The notes beneath the pieces are model-generated. The model had not been told where the DNA came from and made no database searches. It was given only the letters and a program-made list of their open reading frames with translations. From positions 1,277,000 through 1,340,999 of the forward strand of contig CP070821.1 in the NCBI GenBank assembly GCA_020344335.1: a stretch of 64,000 nt of DNA. Reading direction: 5' to 3'. Origin of the DNA: Gammaproteobacteria bacterium. Its GTDB lineage: Bacteria > Pseudomonadota > Gammaproteobacteria > UBA9214. Position 1 is the first letter of the stretch, and each line of letters begins with the position of its first letter. The position numbers and the translations under genes were made by a program. Of the stretch, positions 7,916 to 37,228 are shown in pieces.

Positions 7916-8491
7916 CTATTTCAGTAACGGTTGCAATTTGCCGTCAATCGCATCCCTGGCCCTGAATATCCGCGAACGCACTGTACCGATGGGGCAATCC
8001 ATGGCCAGCGCTATTTCCTCATAACTCATACCTTCAAGTTCCCGTAGCGTAATTGCCGTGCGCAGATCATCAGGCAGCTCATCGATAGCCCTGGCTATGG
8101 TTGCCTGAATCTCGTCCTTCAAAACCAGGTGCTCCGGTGTGTCATACTCTCTCAGACCGGCAGCACCGTCATATTGTTCCGCCTCACCTGCATCAATGTC
8201 GTTACCAGGTGGGCGCCGGCGCATCGCCACCAGGTGATTCTTGGCCGTGTTGATCGCTATCCGGTACAACCAGGTGTAGAACGCACTTTCGCCACGGAAC
8301 CGGCCCATGGCACGGTAGGCCTTGATAAAGGCCTCCTGGGCGACATCCATGGCCTCATCTGGATCATGTACATAGCGATGTACCAGCTTGATGATCTTGT
8401 TCTCGTATTTGAGTACGAGTATGTCAAAAGCCGACTTGTCACCACCCTGTACCCGCTCAACCAGTGCCTGATCAATATTTCGTTCACTCAT
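7916..8491 (-). CDS. rpoE: RNA polymerase sigma-E (sigma-24, AlgU/RpoE, ECF family)
   Basis: Region 2 (DVAQEAFIKAYRA) and region 4 (SYEEIALAMDCPIGTVRSRI) of an ECF sigma; divergent from nadB as in E. coli. Met at 8491 gives about 191 aa (ORF reaches 8536). Confidence 0.93.
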   Translation of the reverse strand: MSERNIDQALVERVQGGDKSAFDILVLKYENKIIKLVHRYVHDPDEAMDVAQEAFIKAYRAMGRFRGESAFYTWLYRIAINTAKNHLVAMRRRPPGNDIDAGEAEQYDGAAGLREYDTPEHLVLKDEIQATIARAIDELPDDLRTAITLRELEGMSYEEIALAMDCPIGTVRSRIFRARDAIDGKLQPLLK

Positions 8492-8672
8492 CGGTGCCCC
8501 GTTCACCGGCGCCCCGGAACGCTGTGTGCCGGCCATGTGACAACATCAACAACAAATAGTTCGCATAAATCATCAAAATTATGATATTTATCAGGAAGTC
8601 CCAACAAGCCCCCGGATGCCGGTACCCGGTACAAGGGCCAACAGTAACCATTAAGCCCTACAGGCTCAAGCG

Positions 8673-28641: not shown

Positions 28642-29277
28642 GTGAATCGCGCCAAGCGACAACAGATTTTCGAGCGCTTTCGCGCCGCCAACCCGTCACC
28701 CACAACGGAACTGCAATACGGCAATCCCTTTCAGTTGCTGGTGGCCGTCATTCTCTCGGCCCAGTCAACCGATGTCGGTGTCAACAAGGCCACTCGCGCT
28801 CTCTTCCGGAAGGTAAAAACACCAAAGGCCATGCTGAATCTGGGTGAGGCAGGTCTCAAGAAACACATAAAGACAATCGGCCTGTTCAACACCAAGGCAA
28901 GCAATATCATCAAGACCTGCAGCATCCTGGTGGAACAGCATAACGGCAAGGTGCCGGAAGACCGTGCCGCCCTCGAGGCCCTGCCCGGTGTCGGCCGGAA
29001 AACCGCCAACGTGGTCCTCAACACGGCATTCGGGCATCCCACCATCGCGGTTGATACGCATATCTTCCGGGTATCCAACCGGACCGGTATCGCGCCAGGG
29101 AAAAACGTGACCGAGGTGGAAAAGCGCCTGTTGCGACTGGTCCCGGAAGAGTTTCTAAAGGATGCGCATCACTGGCTGATCCTGCATGGTCGCTACACCT
29201 GCATCGCGCGCAAACCCCACTGCCAGTCCTGCACCATTGCCGACCTGTGTGAATATAAACACAAGAATATTGAATAG
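28642..29277 (+). CDS. nth: Endonuclease III
   Basis: 211 aa; helix-hairpin-helix region, catalytic Lys/Asp region, C-terminal Cx6CxxCx5C Fe-S cluster; follows the rnf cluster as in E. coli rsx-nth. Confidence 0.93.
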   Translation: MNRAKRQQIFERFRAANPSPTTELQYGNPFQLLVAVILSAQSTDVGVNKATRALFRKVKTPKAMLNLGEAGLKKHIKTIGLFNTKASNIIKTCSILVEQHNGKVPEDRAALEALPGVGRKTANVVLNTAFGHPTIAVDTHIFRVSNRTGIAPGKNVTEVEKRLLRLVPEEFLKDAHHWLILHGRYTCIARKPHCQSCTIADLCEYKHKNIE

Positions 29278-29280
29278 ATA

Positions 29281-29294
29281 TATGTAGTTACATA
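29281..29294. promoter_or_regulatory. Perfect 6-2-6 palindrome TATGTAgtTACATA in an AT-rich leader upstream of the RiPP-precursor gene
   Basis: Read directly from the sequence. It lies in a roughly 200-bp region (29278..29480) of much lower GC than its flanks, about 200 bp upstream of the precursor start. Candidate operator; no regulator identified. Confidence 0.3.
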
Positions 29295-29495
29295 ATAACT
29301 CCCTCTATCCGTATATGCTATATTTCGCGTCTGTAAATTAATGAGAATGCAAATCACTCTGCTTTATCACCTGAAAACCAGAAACTTTCTGATAGCGCCA
29401 ATGTCGTAGTCACTGGAAATAGCACAAGGTCGTGGCAAACGACCACAAACCGGGGCATCGCCCCTTTCCCAACAAACTGTATGGAGATTAAACAG

Positions 29496-29813
29496 ATGTC
29501 AGACAAACCCACAATGAAACCCCTGGCGCTGGCTGCCGGTGCCGTTTTCGTAACTTCACTGGCAAGCACAACGGCCATCAATGCGGCAGAGAACCCGTTT
29601 GCCATGTCCGAACTTTCTAGCGGCTACATGGTTGCCGAAGCCGCCGAAGGCATGAAGAAGGAAGGCGAAGGCAAGTGCGGTGAAGGCAAGTGCGGCGGCG
29701 AAAAGAAGGCCACTGAAGAAGGCAAGTGTGGTGAAGGCAAATGTGGCGGTGAAAAGAAGGCCACTGAAGAAGGCAAGTGTGGTGAAGGCAAGTGCGGCGG
29801 TGAAAAGAAGTAA
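29496..29813 (+). CDS. Bufferin-type (BufA-like) RiPP precursor: Sec signal peptide plus 3x EGKCGEGKCGGEKKATE Cys repeats
   Basis: ATG 29496 is preceded by GGAG at about -10 (track ORF starts at 29481). Predicted signal peptide MSDKPTMKPLALAAGAVFVTSLASTTAINA|AENPF, then three 17-aa repeats carrying 6 Cys, each Cys followed by Gly. Immediately upstream of DUF692/DUF2063/DoxX genes. Confidence 0.75.
   Translation: MSDKPTMKPLALAAGAVFVTSLASTTAINAAENPFAMSELSSGYMVAEAAEGMKKEGEGKCGEGKCGGEKKATEEGKCGEGKCGGEKKATEEGKCGEGKCGGEKK
29667..29810 (+). repeat. Tandem repeat, 51-nt unit x about 2.8 copies, encoding the Cys-repeat core of the precursor
   Basis: Units 29667..29717, 29718..29768, 29769..29810 are near-identical, with only a few synonymous differences (tgc/tgt, ggc/ggt, aag/aaa). 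Confidence 0.9.
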
Positions 29814-29831
29814 TCGGCACCCGAGCTTGTT

Positions 29832-30698
29832 GTGAGCAGTAAAAGCTATCCCGTGAAGGGAACCGGACTTGGACTGCGGCGGACCCTGATGGGTCCGCTG
29901 CAGGACAATCCGTCAGCAGAAATCGATTTTCTGGAGGTTGCCCCTGAAAACTGGATCGGTGTCGGCGGCAAGCTCGGCAGGGAGTTTCGCAAATTTACCG
30001 AGCAGTATCCGTTTACCGGTCATGGTTTGTCACTGTCTATCGGCAGTCCCTCACCCCTGGACGAGACGTTCCTGTATCGCCTGAAGCGATTTCTTGATGA
30101 GCATGATTTTCGTTACTACACAGAGCACCTGAGCTATTGCAGCGATGATGGTCATCTCTATGATCTGCTGCCGATCCCGTTTACCGAGGAGGCTGTTCAT
30201 TACGTGGCTTCCCGAATTCGCCGGGTACAGGATATCCTCGAGCGACGCATTGGCATGGAAAATGTGTCGTATTACGCGGCGCCGGGCAAGGAAATGGATG
30301 AAATTGACTTCATCAATGCAGTCCTGGAAGAAGCCGACTGCGACCTGCTGCTGGATGTCAACAATATCTATGTCAACAGCATCAACCACCACTATGATGC
30401 CGAAGCGTTTCTCAGGAAGCTGCCGGCAGAGCGCGTCGTCTACTTCCACATGGCGGGCCACTTTGACGAGGCAGAGGATTTGAAGGTCGACACCCATGGT
30501 GCGCCGGTCATCGCGCCCGTCTGGGACCTGCTGGAAAAGGCCTATGACCATTGCGGTGTGGTGCCGACCCTGCTGGAGCGCGACTTCAATATCCCCCCGC
30601 TCCCCGAATTGCTGTCAGAAATCAGCCATATCAAGGCCCTGCAATCGAAATCGGGCAGGGATAGCGGCAGTGACAATGGCATCGCACTCCAGAACTGA
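29832..30698 (+). CDS. DUF692/MbnB-like MNIO enzyme (BufB-like RiPP modification enzyme)
   Basis: 288 aa TIM-barrel family protein; N-terminal [12 protein letters not shown] resembles the DUF692 GxGLRxxH region, conserved His/Asp/Glu ligand-rich positions; 18 nt after the precursor stop. Confidence 0.85.
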
Positions 30699-31458
30699 GC
30701 AGCCGGATTTCATTCGTCGGCAATACGAATTTGCCGCCCATATCCGTGACCCTGATAACCAGCCCGCACCGGAGGATATTGAAGACCGGCGCATGGGTAT
30801 CTACCGTGAACTGTTCTTCAATAATGTGGAGAGCTTTATCGCCGGAACCTTTCCGGTCCTGCGGAAAATTCTGGATGACAAGACCTGGCATGCACTGATC
30901 CGGGATTATTTCTCCCGGCACAAGTCGCGCACCCCGCTGTTTCTGGAAATGCCGCGGGAATTTCTCACCTGGCTGGAGAGCGAACGCGACAAACAGGACG
31001 GGGACCTTCCCTTCCTCAGGGAACTGGCCCACTACGAGTGGGTGGAACTGGCCTTGTCGATTGCCGAGGAATCGCTCGATGGGCCCGCAATCGACGGCAA
31101 CGGCGACCTGATGAAGGGTATTCCCGTGCTGTCACCGCTGGCATGGCACCTCGCCTACAACTACCCGGTGCACCGCATCGGCCCGGACTTCCTGCCAGAC
31201 AGCCCGGGCGACAGCCCGACCTTCCTTGTGGTGTATCGTGATCGTGACAATGAAGTCGGGTTTCTCGAGATCAACCCGGTAACCAAGCGCCTGCTGGAAC
31301 TGGTTGACGAGGATTCAGGTGAAACGGGTGAAGCGCTATTGTCCCGCATCGCCCGCGAACTGAATCATCCGGACCCCGGGGTTGTCATCAAGGGCGGTGA
31401 AGAGATACTGAGAAACATGAAACAAAAGGACATCATTCTCGGAACAAGGCAACCGTAA
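30676..31458 (+). CDS. DUF2063-family partner protein (BufC/MbnC-like)
   Basis: About 260 aa starting [26 protein letters not shown]...; overlaps the DUF692 gene by 23 nt (translational coupling); DUF2063 is the usual partner of DUF692 enzymes. Confidence 0.8.
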
Positions 31459-31502
31459 ACCCGTCAAACTTCAATCAATAACGCATAACCGGGAGGGGCA
31501 CC

Positions 31503-32108
31503 ATGACTGGTTTTCTGAACTGCATGCAGGGTTTGCTTGACCGCACAAGGGCGCTCGATTTTCTTGGGCCACTTGCACTGCGAATCTACCTCGCACCCAT
31601 CTTCATCATGGCCGGCTCCAACAAGCTGGCCCATGCCGAGTACCTCGGACCCTACTTTGAATCACTCGGTATCCCTGCACCGCAATTAATGGTCTATGTT
31701 GCCGGACTGACCGAGCTGGTTGGCGGATTCGCCCTGCTTGCAGGACTGGCGGTGCGCTGGATGGCAGCGCCACTGATGTTCACCATGATCATTGCTGCGA
31801 CCACTGCACACTGGGAAAACGGCTGGCACGCCCTGCCGGAGACGGAGCTGACCATGCCCTGGGAATGGCGCACCGATCTCATCGAGGAAGGTACCACACG
31901 CAAGGAAAAGGCCCGGGAAATACTCAGGGAACACGGCAACTATGGCTGGCTGACCGAGGCCGGCAGTATCACCATACTGAAAAACGGCATCGAGTTTGCA
32001 GCCACCTATTTCATCATGCTGCTGGCCCTGTTCTTCACGGGGGCCGGAAAATACCTGAGTTTCGACTACTGGATCGCCCGCAAGTGGCGGCAGGAAGCAA
32101 CCTGTTGA
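31503..32108 (+). CDS. DoxX-family membrane protein (BufD-like)
   Basis: 201 aa, four TM helices, DoxX motif LALRIYLAPIFIMAGSNKL; fourth gene of the cassette. Confidence 0.85.
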   Translation: MTGFLNCMQGLLDRTRALDFLGPLALRIYLAPIFIMAGSNKLAHAEYLGPYFESLGIPAPQLMVYVAGLTELVGGFALLAGLAVRWMAAPLMFTMIIAATTAHWENGWHALPETELTMPWEWRTDLIEEGTTRKEKAREILREHGNYGWLTEAGSITILKNGIEFAATYFIMLLALFFTGAGKYLSFDYWIARKWRQEATC

Positions 32109-32160: not shown

Positions 32161-33690
32161 ATGATATCCGCCGAATCATTTCCCGTAATATCCACCACCG
32201 TACAGGTGATGGCCGCCCTGTTTGTGTTCCTTGTCGGAGTGGGAGTACTGGTCGCCATCATCCTGTTTGTCATTGACGTGACCCAGACGAAAAGCGCCAT
32301 CCGGCGCAATTACCCGGTCGTGGGCCGGTTTCGTTATTTCTTTGAGCACTTGGGTGAGTTTTTCCGTCAGTACTTCTTTGCCATGGACCGGGAAGAGCTG
32401 CCGTTCAACCGGGCCCAGCGTTCCTGGGCCTACCGGGCATCGAAAAATATCGATAACACCGTTGCTTTCGGCTCCACCCGCGACCTGCGCCCGACCGGTA
32501 CTGTATTGTTCGTGAACTGTCCCTTCCCCACGCTGGGTCAGGACGCCGTACCGGCAAGCGCTATCACCATCGGCCCGTACTGCAGGCAACCCTACACGAC
32601 CAGCTCCCTGTTCAATATATCCGGCATGAGTTATGGCGCGATTTCCAGGCCAGCGGTGCTCGCCCTCTCGAACGGGGCACGGGAAGCCGGCTGCTGGATG
32701 AATACCGGGGAAGGTGGACTGTCCCCCTACCACCTCGAGGGTGCTGCCGATATCGTGTTCCAGATCGGCACGGCGAAAAACGGTGTGCGTGACCTGGAGG
32801 GCAATCTGAATGACGACAGGATCCGCGAAGTGGCTGCACATGAAACTGTCAGGATGTTCGAAATCAAGATGAGCCAGGGCGCCAAGCCCGGCAAGGGCGG
32901 CATCCTGCCCGGCGGCAAGGTGACGGAGGAAATTGCCGGCATCCGCGGCATCCCTCCCGGCAGTGACGCCATCAGCCCGAATCGACACATCGATATCAAT
33001 TCGAACAGCGACCTGCTCGACATGATCCGGCGAGTGCGCGAGGTCTCCGGAAAACCAACCGGTTTCAAGACGGTAATCGGCGCCTATGGCTGGCTGGACG
33101 AGCTGTTCACCGAGATCAACAGGCGCGGCATCGAGACGGCACCTGACTTCATCACGGTCGATGGCGCCGATGGAGGTACCGGAGCAGCACCGATGCCACT
33201 GATCGACGATGTCGGCCTGCCGTTACGCGAAAGCCTGCCGTTGCTGGTCGACAAGCTGAATGAGCATGGCCTGCGCGAGCGCGTCAGGGTCATTGCATCA
33301 GGAAAGCTGATTACCCCGGCTGATGTGGCCTGGGCACTGTGTCTGGGGACCGATTTCGTCGTGTCTGCCAGGGGTTTCATGTTTGCACTCGGATGTATCC
33401 AGGCTCTGCAGTGCAACAAGAACACCTGTCCGACCGGCATCACGACGCACAACAAACGACTCCAGAAAGGCCTCGACCCGCAAGACAAGGCCGTCAGGGT
33501 AGCGAACTATGCGAAAAACATCGTCTACGAAGTCGGGATAATCGCCCATTCCTGCGGGGTCCGGGAACCACGCCAGCTACAGCGTTTCCATGCGCGGGTA
33601 GTGACCGACAACGGACTGTCCGTTGCCCTGAACGACCTGCATCCGGACGTTACCGGGCCGGAGAATGGCAACAGTGCGGCCGGCGCATGA
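32161..33690 (+). CDS. FMN-binding glutamate synthase family protein (GltB FMN-domain-like, membrane anchored)
   Basis: 509 aa; N-terminal TM helix, then a glutamate synthase FMN/Fe-S domain-2-like region (GEGG, DGADGGTGAAP, CxxxC...C). Confidence 0.8.
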   Translation: MISAESFPVISTTVQVMAALFVFLVGVGVLVAIILFVIDVTQTKSAIRRNYPVVGRFRYFFEHLGEFFRQYFFAMDREELPFNRAQRSWAYRASKNIDNTVAFGSTRDLRPTGTVLFVNCPFPTLGQDAVPASAITIGPYCRQPYTTSSLFNISGMSYGAISRPAVLALSNGAREAGCWMNTGEGGLSPYHLEGAADIVFQIGTAKNGVRDLEGNLNDDRIREVAAHETVRMFEIKMSQGAKPGKGGILPGGKVTEEIAGIRGIPPGSDAISPNRHIDINSNSDLLDMIRRVREVSGKPTGFKTVIGAYGWLDELFTEINRRGIETAPDFITVDGADGGTGAAPMPLIDDVGLPLRESLPLLVDKLNEHGLRERVRVIASGKLITPADVAWALCLGTDFVVSARGFMFALGCIQALQCNKNTCPTGITTHNKRLQKGLDPQDKAVRVANYAKNIVYEVGIIAHSCGVREPRQLQRFHARVVTDNGLSVALNDLHPDVTGPENGNSAAGA

Positions 33691-33704: not shown

Positions 33705-34919
33705 ATGGAGACTCCCCACGCGGTTTTCCTGCTGACCGGCCTGCTGGTCCTGGCCATCGTCCTCCAGCCGCTCGCGCGGCGACTGCATATACCCCCCAGT
33801 GCTCTACTTGTCATCGCGGGATTCCTGGCCTCGGAACTCATGGTAGGAGCCGGTATCGACACCGGGGTACGCGCCGGCAACTTCCATGACCTGGTATTCT
33901 TTGTCTTCCTGCCGATCCTGATTTTCGAATCGGCGTATAACATCGATGTACGGTTGCTCCTGCGGAACCTGCTGCCGGTACTGTTCCTCGCCATTCCCCT
34001 GATGCTGCTGTCGGCATTGATAACGGCGGTGCTGGTGTATGCCGGTATTGCACATCCCGGTGGCTTTCCCTGGATTGCCGCCCTGCTGACCGGTGCCCTG
34101 CTCTCGGCAACAGACCCGGTCGCAGTGGTTGCGCTGTTCCGCGAGATGGGTGTGCCCGATCGCCTCGGCCTGCTGCTGGAGGGTGAAAGCCTGTTCAACG
34201 ATGCCACCGCCATCGTCCTGTTCGGGGTCTTTCTTGCAATGGCAACCGGTTCGGGCGGTCCCATGACCTGGACGGAGGCATCGGTGCATTTTTCCAGGGT
34301 CTTTTTTGGCGGCATGCTTGCCGGCGGTATGACTGGCCTGGTTATGGCCGCGGTAATGAAGTTGCTCAAAGACCCGGTGACCCGTGGCGTTGCAACGGTA
34401 ATCACCGCCTACCTGGCCTTCGCCATCGCGGAATCAGTGCTGCATGTCTCGGGAGTCATGGCCGTGCTGGTCGCGGGACTGGTTCTGGGACGCGGCAGGG
34501 AGAATGAAAGCTTCGTGCAGAAACTCTGGGAGTTCAATGCCTGGATCGCGAATGCCCTGGTGTTCCTGCTGGTTGGTGTGACGATTACACTGGACATGTT
34601 CACGGAACGCTGGCTGGCCATGCTGATTGGCATAGCCGGGGTGATCAGCGCGCGTGCCATCGGGATATTTACCTGCATCCCGCTGCTGTCACGCGCACTG
34701 CCTGTCGAGGCAATACCGAGGTCCTACCAGGTCATCATGTTCTGGGGAGGATTGCGGGGCGCGGTTACCCTTGCGCTGGCCCTGTCCCTGCCAACCTCCC
34801 TGGATTACTGGTGGACAATTCAATCCATTGCATTTGGCGTGGTGCTGTTTACCCTGTTTATCCAGGCTACCACGACCGGCCCGCTGATCAGGCATTACAA
34901 CCTCAACAAGAGCAACTAG
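33705..34919 (+). CDS. Cation:proton antiporter (CPA1/NhaP-type Na+/H+ exchanger)
   Basis: 404 aa, about 11 TM helices, with ATDPVAV and FNDATAIVLF motifs typical of the Na+/H+ exchanger family. Confidence 0.85.
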   Translation: METPHAVFLLTGLLVLAIVLQPLARRLHIPPSALLVIAGFLASELMVGAGIDTGVRAGNFHDLVFFVFLPILIFESAYNIDVRLLLRNLLPVLFLAIPLMLLSALITAVLVYAGIAHPGGFPWIAALLTGALLSATDPVAVVALFREMGVPDRLGLLLEGESLFNDATAIVLFGVFLAMATGSGGPMTWTEASVHFSRVFFGGMLAGGMTGLVMAAVMKLLKDPVTRGVATVITAYLAFAIAESVLHVSGVMAVLVAGLVLGRGRENESFVQKLWEFNAWIANALVFLLVGVTITLDMFTERWLAMLIGIAGVISARAIGIFTCIPLLSRALPVEAIPRSYQVIMFWGGLRGAVTLALALSLPTSLDYWWTIQSIAFGVVLFTLFIQATTTGPLIRHYNLNKSN

Positions 34920-35224: not shown

Positions 35225-35728
35225 TCATTTCTTAAGATCCCGAATCTTTTCAAGTAACCCCTTGTCATCCCATTCACGACTGCCGATGGCCCGGTAGGCA
35301 ATCGTGCCATCCGGCGCAATGATATAAGTCGTAGGCAGGCCCTTTACCGGCCACTGTTCAATAACAGCACCATCACGGTCCATCAAGATCGGAAAATCCG
35401 CCGGATAGTCGGCCGTGAAAATAAATATCGTATCCTCATCCTCTCCCATGTTGACGGCAAGCATGGCAATCCCTTCCTTTTCAAGCACATGCCAGGCGCG
35501 ATTCATGGAGGGAATTTCTTCACGGCAGGGCGGACACCAGGTTGCCCAGAAATTGATAATGACCGGCTTGCCACGATAATCCGACAGGCGGTGTGTTTTG
35601 CCTTCAGTATCCTGCAACACAAAGTCAGGCGCCGGCGTGCCTGGCGGGATGGCCGCCAGCATCTGTTCGGCATGCGCCGGGCCGGAAACCGCGAGCAGTA
35701 TTATCAACAATGACAGAAAAACCTTCAT
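35225..35728 (-). CDS. Periplasmic TlpA-like thioredoxin (second paralog)
   Basis: 167 aa, signal peptide, NFWATWCPPCREE motif. Confidence 0.85.
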   Translation of the reverse strand: MKVFLSLLIILLAVSGPAHAEQMLAAIPPGTPAPDFVLQDTEGKTHRLSDYRGKPVIINFWATWCPPCREEIPSMNRAWHVLEKEGIAMLAVNMGEDEDTIFIFTADYPADFPILMDRDGAVIEQWPVKGLPTTYIIAPDGTIAYRAIGSREWDDKGLLEKIRDLKK

Positions 35729-35732
35729 GCCA

Positions 35733-36359
35733 TCACTTCAGCCTGTCAACATCGGGAGCGCACTCCACACCATCGATACGCCCGGAGCGAAGCGCATCAC
35801 CCTCGTTCCAGGATACCTCGAGATCAAAAACCGAACCCGGGGGAATCCCGTAGGCAGTCAGACCCCAGTTATAGTCACCGGGCAGGTACTCCTGCCGTGT
35901 CGGGAACATGCCCCAGCGGACCACGAGTTTCGCTGCATGGCTCGCCTGCTCTTCCGTCCATGTGGCAAGCCAGGATTCCTTCAGTTTGATACCTGTTTCT
36001 TTCCCGGCATGCCGCATTCGCCATCCCGTCAGATCGATCGCAACCGGCTGGCCGGTTCCCGACTTGCCGTTATTGCGTATGATCGTCTGGAACATGCAAC
36101 TGGTTGCCAGTTCCTCGATGACCTCCCGGGAAAACTCGTGATTCATGAACAGTGCCCGGGTCTGGTCCGGCAATCTTTGAATCAGCTCGATCTCGATATC
36201 ACCATCGGTAAAATGCCATTTTTTCAGGCCGGTGTCCTCGTTGACACCCTGCATGACATCTGCACGAACAAGCGCGGGCATCAGACTGCAAAGCAGGCAA
36301 AGCACCCGGAACGATTTGCCGCTATAGCGCAGCACTGGAGGGACGCGGTGCAGGACCAT
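35733..36359 (-). CDS. Hypothetical secreted protein
   Basis: About 208 aa from Met 36359 (MVLHRVPPVLRYSGKSFRVLCLLCSLMPALVRADV, signal-peptide-like). No family recognised. Sits between the secretin-N protein and tlpA-like genes on the same strand. Confidence 0.4.
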   Translation of the reverse strand: MVLHRVPPVLRYSGKSFRVLCLLCSLMPALVRADVMQGVNEDTGLKKWHFTDGDIEIELIQRLPDQTRALFMNHEFSREVIEELATSCMFQTIIRNNGKSGTGQPVAIDLTGWRMRHAGKETGIKLKESWLATWTEEQASHAAKLVVRWGMFPTRQEYLPGDYNWGLTAYGIPPGSVFDLEVSWNEGDALRSGRIDGVECAPDVDRLK

Positions 36360-36370
36360 AGCCGGTTTCG

Positions 36371-37228
36371 TCAGTTCGCCCCGCAGTCGATGCATTCCAC
36401 CTTGACCCGGATCTGCTGCGACTGCATCGACTGCTGTTGCTGTGAGCGCGCCAGGCCAGTACGACTGTCCTTGCTGGCCGAATCGATGCCTCCGAGTACA
36501 ACCCACTCCCCCAGCCTGCCGCGGACAACGCTGCCGGCCCGCTGGATCTCGAAGGTTCCGGGTATCCGCCCGGGCCGGTCATCATGCTGAAGGATCTCCA
36601 GCAGGACCTCGGTTCCACTGATACGCGGAACCACGTAAAAACCACTGGTGACATCATGCAACTCGGTACCGTGTGGATAGCCGCCGTAGACCGGAACCCG
36701 TGACCCGGCATGTATCCAGGCCGGCCGACCTTCGAGCGCCTGGACCTGCTGTCCGGCACTGCGTTCCCCGAAGGCACCATGCCTGTAGACATCGAGACGG
36801 GCACGGGAATCCTCGGCCGGGCGCCCGGGGGAATTGATGCCCACCTGTCCGTCACCAATCCTGATATCCGCCCTGCCGGAATAACCCGACGCACGACCGG
36901 CATCTTCCCCGCTATTGCCTACTGTAATAATCAGTCGCCGTGGAGGGCGGTCAATCCGGACAAGCAACTCGCGTATCTCGCGCACCCGGTCCGGTGCCGC
37001 CTTGATTACCAGGTTATTGCCCATCCCGGTGACCGTGCCATCGGGACCGACCAGCGGCCTGACAACCGGTATTACTTCATTCAGGGTGGCCGCCCGAAGT
37101 TCGATTACCTCGATCGGATAATCGGCATATACAGGAATAAAGGACAGGAAAACTGTCAGCATGCAGCAAGCCAACCAGCGACTGCGGTAATGTGTCCTGG
37201 ATGCTTTCCGGAATGGCAGGTTCATCAT
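36371..37228 (-). CDS. Secretin N-domain (NolW-like) containing protein
   Basis: 285 aa, N-terminal signal/anchor. The segment IEVIELRAATLNEVIPVVRPLVGPDGTVTGMGNNLVIKAAPDRVREIRELLVRID resembles the secretin N/STN domain. No C-terminal secretin pore domain. Confidence 0.5.
   Translation of the reverse strand: MMNLPFRKASRTHYRSRWLACCMLTVFLSFIPVYADYPIEVIELRAATLNEVIPVVRPLVGPDGTVTGMGNNLVIKAAPDRVREIRELLVRIDRPPRRLIITVGNSGEDAGRASGYSGRADIRIGDGQVGINSPGRPAEDSRARLDVYRHGAFGERSAGQQVQALEGRPAWIHAGSRVPVYGGYPHGTELHDVTSGFYVVPRISGTEVLLEILQHDDRPGRIPGTFEIQRAGSVVRGRLGEWVVLGGIDSASKDSRTGLARSQQQQSMQSQQIRVKVECIDCGAN

Follow-up and report, generated by a model that had tools for sequence, protein, structure and literature searches.

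Gene content of the locus

The segment 29278–32108 of a 64-kb stretch of a Gammaproteobacteria metagenome-assembled genome (MAG; contig CP070821.1; the whole stretch is referred to below as the window, and all coordinates are relative to its position 1) starts at the first base past the nth stop codon and ends with the stop codon of a DoxX family gene. An open reading frame (ORF) check places four co-directional genes in this segment (29496–32108, forward strand), for a small cysteine (Cys)-rich precursor peptide, a multinuclear non-heme iron oxidase (MNIO), its DUF2063 partner and a DoxX protein:

29496..29813, forward strand: hvfA-like precursor, ATG start, 105 aa (NF050137 match)
29832..30698, forward strand: hvfB-like MNIO (DUF692), GTG start, 288 aa (PF05114, NF003818)
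30676..31458, forward strand: hvfC-like partner, PME type 1, with a DUF2063 N-terminal domain and an NGO1945_C/RiPP recognition element (RRE) C-terminal domain, 260 aa (PF09836, PF22106, NF050145)
31503..32108, forward strand: hvfX-like DoxX membrane protein, 201 aa (PF07681, NF050144)

The precursor and MNIO genes are separated by 18 nt, the MNIO and partner genes overlap by 23 nt, and the partner and DoxX genes are 44 nt apart; this gene set, order and spacing had been reported in an initial annotation of the same DNA and were reproduced to the base. The four gene boundaries also match the deposited proteins UCC57373.1–UCC57376.1, which are encoded on a contig of 2.62 Mb and named “hypothetical protein”, “DUF692 domain-containing protein”, “putative DNA-binding domain-containing protein” and “DoxX family protein”. 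The remark of the initial annotation that such precursors are typically annotated as hypothetical is true of UCC57373.1, and re-annotation would be of value both for this entry and for the partner listed as “DNA-binding”. An alternative in-frame ATG at 29481 would yield a 110-aa precursor, but the 105-aa form is favored because the GGAG at 29483–29486 sits 9 nt before 29496 and because the deposited protein is the 105-aa form.

Family assignment of the cluster

The DUF692, DUF2063 and DoxX assignments proposed initially are upheld by the Pfam thresholds, with 351.2 bits for the MNIO (PF05114; cut-off 25), 94.7 bits for the partner (PF09836; cut-off 27.2), which also matches PF22106 (106.1 bits; cut-off 27), and 77.2 bits for the DoxX protein (PF07681; cut-off 23.6). 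The NCBIfam models allow a finer distinction. The MNIO passes the cut-off of the HvfB family (NF003818, 445.3 vs. 360) and fails those of BufB (NF050167, 266.7 vs. 310), ChrH (60.7 vs. 600) and MbnB (TIGR04159, 42.6 vs. 325), whereas the partner and the DoxX protein pass those of the HvfC (NF050145, 321.6 vs. 142) and HvfX (NF050144, 190.3 vs. 80) families, and the precursor matches the HvfA family model (NF050137, KCGExKCG_twice) over three stretches with 66.3 bits against a cut-off of 19.5. Given that all four proteins pass the Hvf cut-offs and that BufB is failed, the cluster is assigned to the oxazolin (HvfABCX) type rather than to BufABCD, and we consider it very probable that the locus is an oxazolin-type (HvfABCX, ‘Buf_EGKCG’, captophorin) metallophore cluster, i.e., one that would produce a metal-binding peptide that is made on the ribosome and modified after translation (a RiPP). 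The initial designation of the locus as a bufferin (BufABCD)-type cassette is right insofar as it describes a RiPP cassette of precursor, MNIO, DUF2063 protein and DoxX; it is not a bufferin in the strict sense, given the BufB score and the lack of DUF2282. The BufA/DUF2282 precursor model, proposed initially as a check, gave no Pfam match on the small ORF: no Pfam family, DUF2282 included, was found in the precursor at E <= 0.01, and NCBIfam returned HvfA-family models only.

The family is well described. In Haemophilus influenzae, HvfA comprises a 24-residue signal peptide, a 20-residue N-terminal segment and three AEGKCGEGKCG motifs, and HvfB and HvfC together modify all six of its Cys to give a Cu(I)-binding product (PMC11252979). 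The modification, first assigned in 2024 as oxazolone/thioamide in the same study, has been reassigned to 5-thiooxazole by two groups (PMC12668002, published as PMC13097082; bioRxiv 10.64898/2026.06.05.730506). Owing to this reassignment, the Cys-to-5-thiooxazole, Cu(I)-binding chemistry that was initially proposed for the locus now agrees with the literature, from which it carries over by homology. A 2025 survey lists about 2,000 “Buf_EGKCG/oxazolin” precursors, which are defined by repeats of 17 residues containing two EGKCG motifs (PMC12452194). Further characterized members are fontiphorin, gonophorin and bulbicupramide; the last, the product of Microbulbifer MmrABC, is selective for Cu(I) and has thiooxazoles at all six Cys of its three two-Cys cassettes (PMC12538549). 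In a family with about 2,000 precursors and over 24,000 MNIO-partner loci on record, the cassette itself is one more environmental example.

The MNIO is 48.9% identical to the Histophilus somni MNIO 3BWW and, compared with this structure, retains all the metal-site motifs (HGLSLS, EHLS, MENVSYY, LDVNNIY, HMAGH, VDTHG, and LLERDF); LDVNNIY and VDTHG contain the equivalents of N175, D242 and H244 of HvfB, the site-3 residues that are essential by mutagenesis (bioRxiv 10.64898/2026.07.17.739211). The partner matches NGO1945 of Neisseria gonorrhoeae (3DEE, E = 7e-10), and the DoxX protein has three transmembrane-like segments by hydropathy. HvfX-type DoxX proteins are common in clusters of this family, without occurring in all of them. 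In the case of bufferin 1, neither modification nor copper protection requires DoxX.

A genome scan with the MNIO yielded 583 relatives, of which 80 were kept as loci for the counts given below (individual loci are denoted by L numbers); precursors were located in them by motif, and the 56 full-length ones were used for the analysis of conservation. At 82% identity, MNIOs of Ectothiorhodospiraceae-, Thiogranum- and Thiohalobacter-like MAGs are the top relatives. Microbulbifer, with MNIOs 70–72% identical to that of the window, is therefore the closest characterized relative found by sequence. An EGKCG precursor lies directly upstream of the MNIO gene in most of the 80 loci.

The precursor peptide

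The precursor starts with a signal-like n/h/c pattern that consists of a basic n-region (MSDKPTMK), a hydrophobic h-region (PLALAAGAVFVTSLA, Kyte-Doolittle hydropathy up to 2.2) and a c-region STTAINA with an A-x-A-type site ahead of AE. This pattern is typical of a Sec signal, and a signal peptide, in place of a cleaved RiPP leader, is predicted from it to span residues 1–30 (29496–29585), with cleavage between INA and AE. The predicted mature peptide has 75 aa and a calculated mass of 7612.5 Da, which six modifications would reduce to 7588.3 Da. All six Cys lie within GKCG, in three cassettes of the form EGKCGEGKCGGEKK(ATE), each with two EGKCG Cys. The initial description of the mature part as almost entirely made of repeats is accurate with respect to these cassettes and their six Cys and overstated with respect to the rest, the first 27 of the 75 residues (AENPFAMSELSSGYMVAEAAEGMKKEG) being non-repeat.

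The non-repeat part contains a highly conserved core, NPF...L..GY, within a leader-like segment (AENPFAMSELSSGYM, 29586–29630) that directly follows the predicted cleavage site. Among the 56 full-length relative precursors, this segment retains N in 96%, P in 98%, F in 100%, L in 92%, G in 100%, and Y in 87%; these precursors likewise have a signal-like architecture, with predicted cleavage immediately ahead of the conserved xNPF. In the Microbulbifer study, the conserved leader region is modeled as bound by the RRE of the partner protein (PMC12538549), and the leader-like segment of the window precursor corresponds to this region.

The cassettes were initially taken for an extreme, minimal Cys-Gly core. 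This is not the case: the 17-residue double-EGKCG repeat is what defines the family of about 2,000 members, and Cys counts range from 2 to 16 in the 56 relatives, so six is mid-to-low. Given that its architecture is that of the surveyed Buf_EGKCG/oxazolin precursors, the window precursor is a canonical one. At the DNA level, the cassettes form a repeat at 29667–29810 (forward strand), for which Tandem Repeats Finder gives a score of 260 and 93% matches over 2.8 copies of a 51-nt (17-aa) period. The 93% identity of the three cassettes, together with the range of Cys numbers in the relatives, suggests frequent repeat expansion and contraction through recombination or slippage.

In the precursors of the nearest relatives (L001, L003, L004 and L006), an EF-hand-like insert (DADGDGKVTKDEF...) is present between EGKCG cassettes; the window precursor has no such insert. 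These precursors may belong to the second, EF-hand-containing Buf_EGKCG type of the 2025 survey, although that type was described there as a terminal EF-hand fusion, unlike the internal insert seen here. In another set of loci (L017, L031, L036, L040, L048, L054, and L067–L071), the MNIO is accompanied by HvfC and often by DoxX, and the 700 nt upstream contain neither an EGKCG precursor nor a convincing alternative Cys-rich ORF; nth and the MNIO gene of L068 and L070 are separated by a conserved ~145-aa ORF (MFFGDDR...RQRY.DAWRKA...). The substrate gene of these loci may be located elsewhere or be of another type.

Promoter, leader and regulation

The leader ahead of the precursor (29200–29499) is distinctly AT-rich, as observed initially, with a GC content of 0.405–0.435 compared with 0.58 for the window. 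Two features are predicted in it:

29381..29408, forward strand: putative extracytoplasmic function (ECF)/sigma-E-type promoter GAAACTTTCTGATAGCGCCAATGTCGTA, with a -35-like GAAACTT (29381–29387) and a -10-like GTCGTA (29403–29408)
29409..29495, forward strand: predicted 5' untranslated region (UTR) of 87 nt, with two small hairpins (RNAalifold) and the ribosome-binding site GGAG at 29483–29486

When the sequences between nth and hvfA are aligned for the closest relatives, the sole strongly conserved block is CAGAAACTTT...GTCGTA. The promoter motif has the form GAAACTTT-N14-GTC(R)(W)(W), and its strict form is unique in the window. The geometry is that of RpoE/ECF promoters (GGAACTT-N16-TCNAA-like). 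A match to G[AG]AAC[TC]T-N15-17-TCNN[AT] within 320 nt upstream of the precursor was found in 29 of 56 loci, compared with an estimated ~0.7% per locus by chance. Positions that the pattern does not force are conserved as well (G23 in 100% and T8 in 88%), and the spacers are divergent. Furthermore, in six extra loci that were retrieved through the GltS-like gene described in the next section, the motif is located directly upstream of the precursor in every case (position 3778 in L081, 3541 in L083, 557 in L085, 3681 in L086, 3661 in L087, and 3196 in L088); it is the only match in five of them, and L088 contains one more, within the GltS-like gene. We infer from this conservation that the motif acts as a promoter, which supports the “regulated module” of the initial annotation in a more specific form.

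The upstream region of rpoE in the window has the same layout, CGAACTAT-N14-GTCACA (8563–8536, reverse strand), and the encoded sigma factor is 32% identical to the cluster-linked ECF sigma of L081. In H. influenzae, where it is induced by hypochlorous acid (HOCl), and in Neisseria, the orthologous cluster is controlled by an ECF sigma with a ZAS anti-sigma (PMC7907618); bufferins are under SigF/NrsF control. These parallels point to ECF-dependent stress induction of the cluster. If so, the motif would place many oxazolin clusters in a stress regulon of the ECF/sigma-E type, which bears on whether they serve in copper defense or in defense against oxidative and envelope stress.

The longest rpoE ORF of the window starts at the ATG at 8536 (reverse strand), and homology begins only at ~8488–8491 (MSERNIDQ...); a sigma-E-like element, CGAACTATTTGTTGTTGATGTTGTCACA, overlaps the upstream ATG (region 8563–8488, reverse strand). 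Given the late start of homology and this overlap, the true start of rpoE is probably the downstream Met, and the gene is probably autoregulated. It is followed by rseA/B/C and a gene for a DegP-like protease (7896–4411).

Two other types of regulatory site were considered for the leader and dropped. A Fur/Zur-box-like sequence, TAATGAGAATGCAAATCA (~29343–29360), falls in a stretch that is unconserved in the footprinting alignment, and a consensus scan for sigma-70 promoters was empty in the leader, the overall counts being at shuffle level.

The hairpins of the predicted UTR are GGTCGT-GGCAA-ACGACC (29428–29444) and GGGGC-AUC-GCCCC (29452–29464). RNAalifold with seven relatives yields 9 pairs, and 4 of these show compensatory changes, e.g., GGGGC/GCCCC to GGAAC/GUUCC in the second hairpin; in the single-sequence fold (z = -1.9), CUUUCC and the GGAG ribosome-binding site form a third helix. 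With seven related sequences and this z-score, the evidence for a UTR structure is weak. A search of the window with Rfam (gathering thresholds) and ARAGORN produced no RNA gene match, i.e., the leader contains no riboswitch or leader RNA known to these tools.

Genomic context and the GltS-like/NhaP pair

Downstream of hvfX, two further genes follow in the same direction:

32161..33690, forward strand: GltS-domain flavin mononucleotide (FMN)/[3Fe-4S]-type protein, membrane-anchored at the N-terminus, 509 aa (PF01645), probable accessory gene
33705..34919, forward strand: NhaP/CPA1-type cation:proton antiporter, 404 aa (PF00999), possible accessory gene

The GltS-like protein (PF01645, 299.6 bits) aligns with glutamate synthase large chains in their FMN domain and has the Cys motif C412-x5-C418-x4-C423-P of the [3Fe-4S] type; the antiporter matches PF00999 with 220.7 bits. 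The GltS-like gene starts 52 nt after hvfX and the NhaP gene 14 nt after the GltS-like gene, with no terminator-like sites between the three genes.

The initial annotation had the cassette wedged between core genes, nth on one side and this pair on the other. The comparison of the relatives does not bear this out: at least 34 of the 80 loci have rnfE-nth on the upstream side of the cluster, and the pair travels with the cluster. The GltS-like gene adjoins hvf genes in 14 of the 80 loci, and at least five gene orders are found (with G for the GltS-like gene, X for hvfX, P for NhaP, and B and C for hvfB and hvfC): X-G, C-G-X, C-G, G-X-B-C, and G-X-P-B-C, the NhaP gene lying between hvfX and hvfB in L071. 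Conversely, when the search was started from homologs of the GltS-like protein, all six loci sampled (L081, L083, and L085–L088) turned out to lie within hvf clusters that include NhaP, which follows the GltS-like and DoxX genes in each of them; with all six proteins at least 79% identical to that of the window, this sample represents one orthologous group and not PF01645 as a whole. L088 has the same arrangement as the window, rnf-nth-A-B-C-X-G-P, and the other five belong to a second neighborhood of the form [prfB-lysS]-[ECF sigma + zf-HC2 anti-sigma]-A-B-C-G-X-P; of these, L081, L086 and L087 contain the sigma/anti-sigma pair, L083 lacks it, and in L085 the flank ends just upstream of the precursor, short of where the pair would lie. 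Co-travel was seen in L021, L033, L041, L049, L071 and L081–L088, with the GltS-like gene almost always beside the DoxX gene.

Adjacency that is conserved through rearrangement suggests a functional coupling of the GltS-like and NhaP genes with the hvf genes. We tentatively propose, as a genuine possibility that falls somewhat short of probable, that hvfA-B-C, hvfX, the GltS-domain FMN/[3Fe-4S] oxidoreductase and the NhaP-type antiporter form a six-gene operon under the sigma-E/ECF-type promoter, with the flavo-iron-sulfur protein as a possible physiological redox partner of the pathway. Were this the case, the GltS-like protein could supply the electrons by which the MNIO reaches its active, mixed-valent Fe(II)/Fe(III) state, which in vitro needs ascorbate; alternatively, together with DoxX, it could keep the thiooxazole thiols or copper reduced. 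The association of GltS-like genes with MNIO and DoxX genes is not mentioned in the main text or supplements of two large surveys, and no report combining MNIO or DoxX with glutamate synthase was found in the searchable literature. The linkage would be an unreported lead on the function of DoxX/HvfX and on the reductant of the MNIO cofactor in vivo.

Recent horizontal acquisition of the cassette was considered and rejected: its GC content (0.51–0.63) is no different from that of the flanks and the position next to rnfE-nth is kept in at least 34 of the 80 relatives, both of which speak against a recently inserted island. Among these relatives, a contig titled ‘uncultured Halobacteria archaeon’ (L006, CAVYIJ010000003.1) carries rnfE-nth-hvfABCX-GltS-like genes 76–85% identical to those of the window; the bin is probably mislabeled or the contig mis-binned.

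Convergent to the end of the cluster, the window encodes a TlpA/ResA-like periplasmic thioredoxin with a weak SCO1/SenC match (35225–35728, reverse strand) and a 257-aa ORF without a family match (35733–36506, reverse strand). The same pair is found downstream of the hvf clusters in L002, L004, L005, L006, L012 and L088, with a cupredoxin gene next to it in the last of these; weaker TlpA-like matches occur alone in L028 (40% identity) and L041 (28%). This pair was set aside as a part of the system, since it is retained only in the closest relatives and L088, a distribution compatible with plain synteny; it could reflect such synteny or a copper/redox link.

Proposed function and alternative interpretations

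The following course of events can be proposed. Transcription from the ECF/sigma-E-type promoter in the AT-rich leader would be elicited by envelope, oxidative or metal stress, as the genomic context suggests, and in this lineage the operon probably runs on into the genes for the membrane-anchored GltS-like flavo-iron-sulfur protein and the NhaP antiporter. The 105-aa HvfA pre-peptide would be synthesized in the cytoplasm and bound by the RRE-containing HvfC, probably via the conserved NPF..EL..GYM segment, in line with its conservation and with the published models. By homology, HvfB would then use iron and O2 for the four-electron oxidation of each of the six EGKCG Cys to 5-thiooxazole (-4 Da each). 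The modified peptide is predicted to be exported through Sec and cleaved after INA, and the periplasmic product of ~7.6 kDa would, like its characterized homologs, sequester Cu(I) through thiooxazole N/S pairs. Any role of the GltS-like protein, NhaP or DoxX in this scheme is suggested by context.

Several observations weigh against this interpretation. The precursor scores below the cut-off of the strict HvfA equivalog model (NF050188, 51.8 vs. 95) and has no counterpart of the Cys38/Cys43 pair of H. influenzae HvfA; by domain model, it is a member of the family and not an equivalog of HvfA itself. The sole ECF sigma of the window is RpoE, encoded ~21 kb away. Copper protection by EGKCG peptides is weak, with a slight effect in Escherichia coli and no expression of mmr in Microbulbifer (PMC12538549). 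Expression, export, modification and metal binding at this particular locus are all derived from homology.

With respect to the identity of the system, a bufferin cassette in the strict sense (BufABCD, Buf1/Buf2) would have the same enzyme superfamily, PME-1 partner, DoxX gene, Sec signal peptide, product chemistry and metal; moreover, bufferin and oxazolin MNIOs share one sequence-similarity cluster (PMC12452194), and the label in use by the Lille group itself, ‘Buf_EGKCG/oxazolin’, is a hybrid. Nevertheless, we give this reading next to no credence, considering that the MNIO scores below the BufB and above the HvfB cut-off, that the precursor matches the NCBIfam HvfA family only and neither DUF2282 nor any other Pfam family, and that no sigmaF/NrsF pair is encoded nearby. 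A related question is whether the Cys of an oxazolin-type precursor would be converted to methanobactin-like oxazolone/thioamide groups rather than to 5-thiooxazoles. HvfA was originally assigned in this way (PMC11252979), distinguishing between the two isomeric products is difficult, and the authors of the Microbulbifer study call their own thiooxazole assignment tentative. Against it stand the reassignment by two groups, which relies on alkylation-assisted heteronuclear multiple bond correlation (HMBC), comparison with methanobactin and absorbance at 305 nm, as well as the score of the window MNIO with the MbnB model, and oxazolone/thioamide formation appears very improbable.

The physiological role leaves more room for doubt. 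With the same chemistry, the peptide could serve mainly in defense against envelope, oxidative or hypochlorite stress, or in thiol/redox homeostasis, rather than in copper buffering. The sigma-E/ECF-type promoter motif fits such a role, as do the dedicated ECF and zf-HC2 (ZAS-type) anti-sigma genes beside the cluster in L081, L086 and L087 and the RpoE2-dependent, HOCl-induced expression of the orthologous H. influenzae cluster (PMC7907618); the DoxX proteins, the flavo-iron-sulfur protein and the nearby TlpA-like thioredoxin point to redox functions, and the copper-protection phenotypes of EGKCG peptides are weak. However, every characterized member binds Cu(I) with high affinity and selectivity. 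Given that copper itself causes envelope and oxidative stress, the two roles are compatible, and we regard a mainly redox-protective role as rather unlikely, albeit a serious contender. Copper acquisition, storage or delivery to cuproenzymes, as by a chalkophore, appears improbable: it would agree with Cu(I) binding of the kind seen in methanobactin, with the TlpA/SCO1-like thioredoxin downstream and with the cupredoxin gene in the neighborhood of L088, but neither a TonB receptor nor an MbnT-like importer or exporter is encoded in the cluster, the predicted location of the product is the periplasm, and related systems respond to excess metal and not to starvation. An oxazolin-type cluster for periplasmic copper buffering remains our preferred interpretation.

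Comparison with known systems

With the oxazolin system HvfABCX of nontypeable H. influenzae (NTHi; NTHI1440-1444), all four gene families are shared, each above its Hvf-family cut-off. Both precursors have a Sec signal, predicted in the case of the window, and three (A)EGKCGEGKCG cassettes with six modifiable Cys; the MNIO metal-site residues are conserved, with counterparts of N175, D242 and H244 among them; and ECF-type control is plausible for both systems. The window MNIO is, however, only ~49% identical to 3BWW, a close HvfB homolog. The gene order differs, A-B-C-X in the window and X-A-B-C in NTHi, as does the N-terminal segment of the precursor, which lacks the Cys pair (C38/C43) of HvfA, and the precursor scores below the strict equivalog cut-off. 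The co-traveling GltS-like and NhaP genes are extra in the window, and the host is represented by an environmental MAG as opposed to a pathogen.

In MmrABC of Microbulbifer, the source of bulbicupramide, the precursor likewise has three two-Cys EGKCG cassettes and a conserved N-terminal leader-like region. Unlike the window, the Microbulbifer loci (L034, L035, L039, and L066) comprise A-B-C only, with no adjacent DoxX gene, the spacers between the cassettes are KKK-rich instead of GGEKKATE, and the motif scan did not find the promoter motif upstream of the precursors. The ‘captophorins’ fontiphorin (FonABC) and gonophorin (NgoABC) share with the window an EGKCG-repeat precursor, an MNIO and a PME1 partner. 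For these peptides, installation of 5-thiooxazoles has been demonstrated by nuclear magnetic resonance (NMR) and copper is bound; the fon cluster is minimal, with three genes and seven modification sites in FonA, and the Neisseria (gonophorin) cluster has its own ECF sigma alongside.

The bufferins Buf1 and Buf2 (BufABCD) of Caulobacter vibrioides have the same precursor/MNIO/DUF2063/DoxX architecture, and the resemblance of the window system to them in thiooxazole chemistry, periplasmic copper chelation and ECF-sigma regulation is drawn by homology. Their precursors contain the folded DUF2282 or Buf_6/12Cys domains rather than the EGKCG repeats of the window precursor, the window MNIO fails the BufB cut-off, and sigmaF/NrsF are absent from the window. 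The methanobactin system (MbnABC) differs in several respects: the product contains oxazolone/thioamide groups, the precursor has a cleaved leader and no Sec signal, the partner is MbnC and not a DUF2063 protein, the function is copper uptake, and the window MNIO reaches only 42.6 bits against the MbnB cut-off of 325. Common to methanobactin and to the pathway proposed here is an MNIO-family enzyme that acts on Cys residues of a ribosomal peptide and turns them into Cu(I) ligands.

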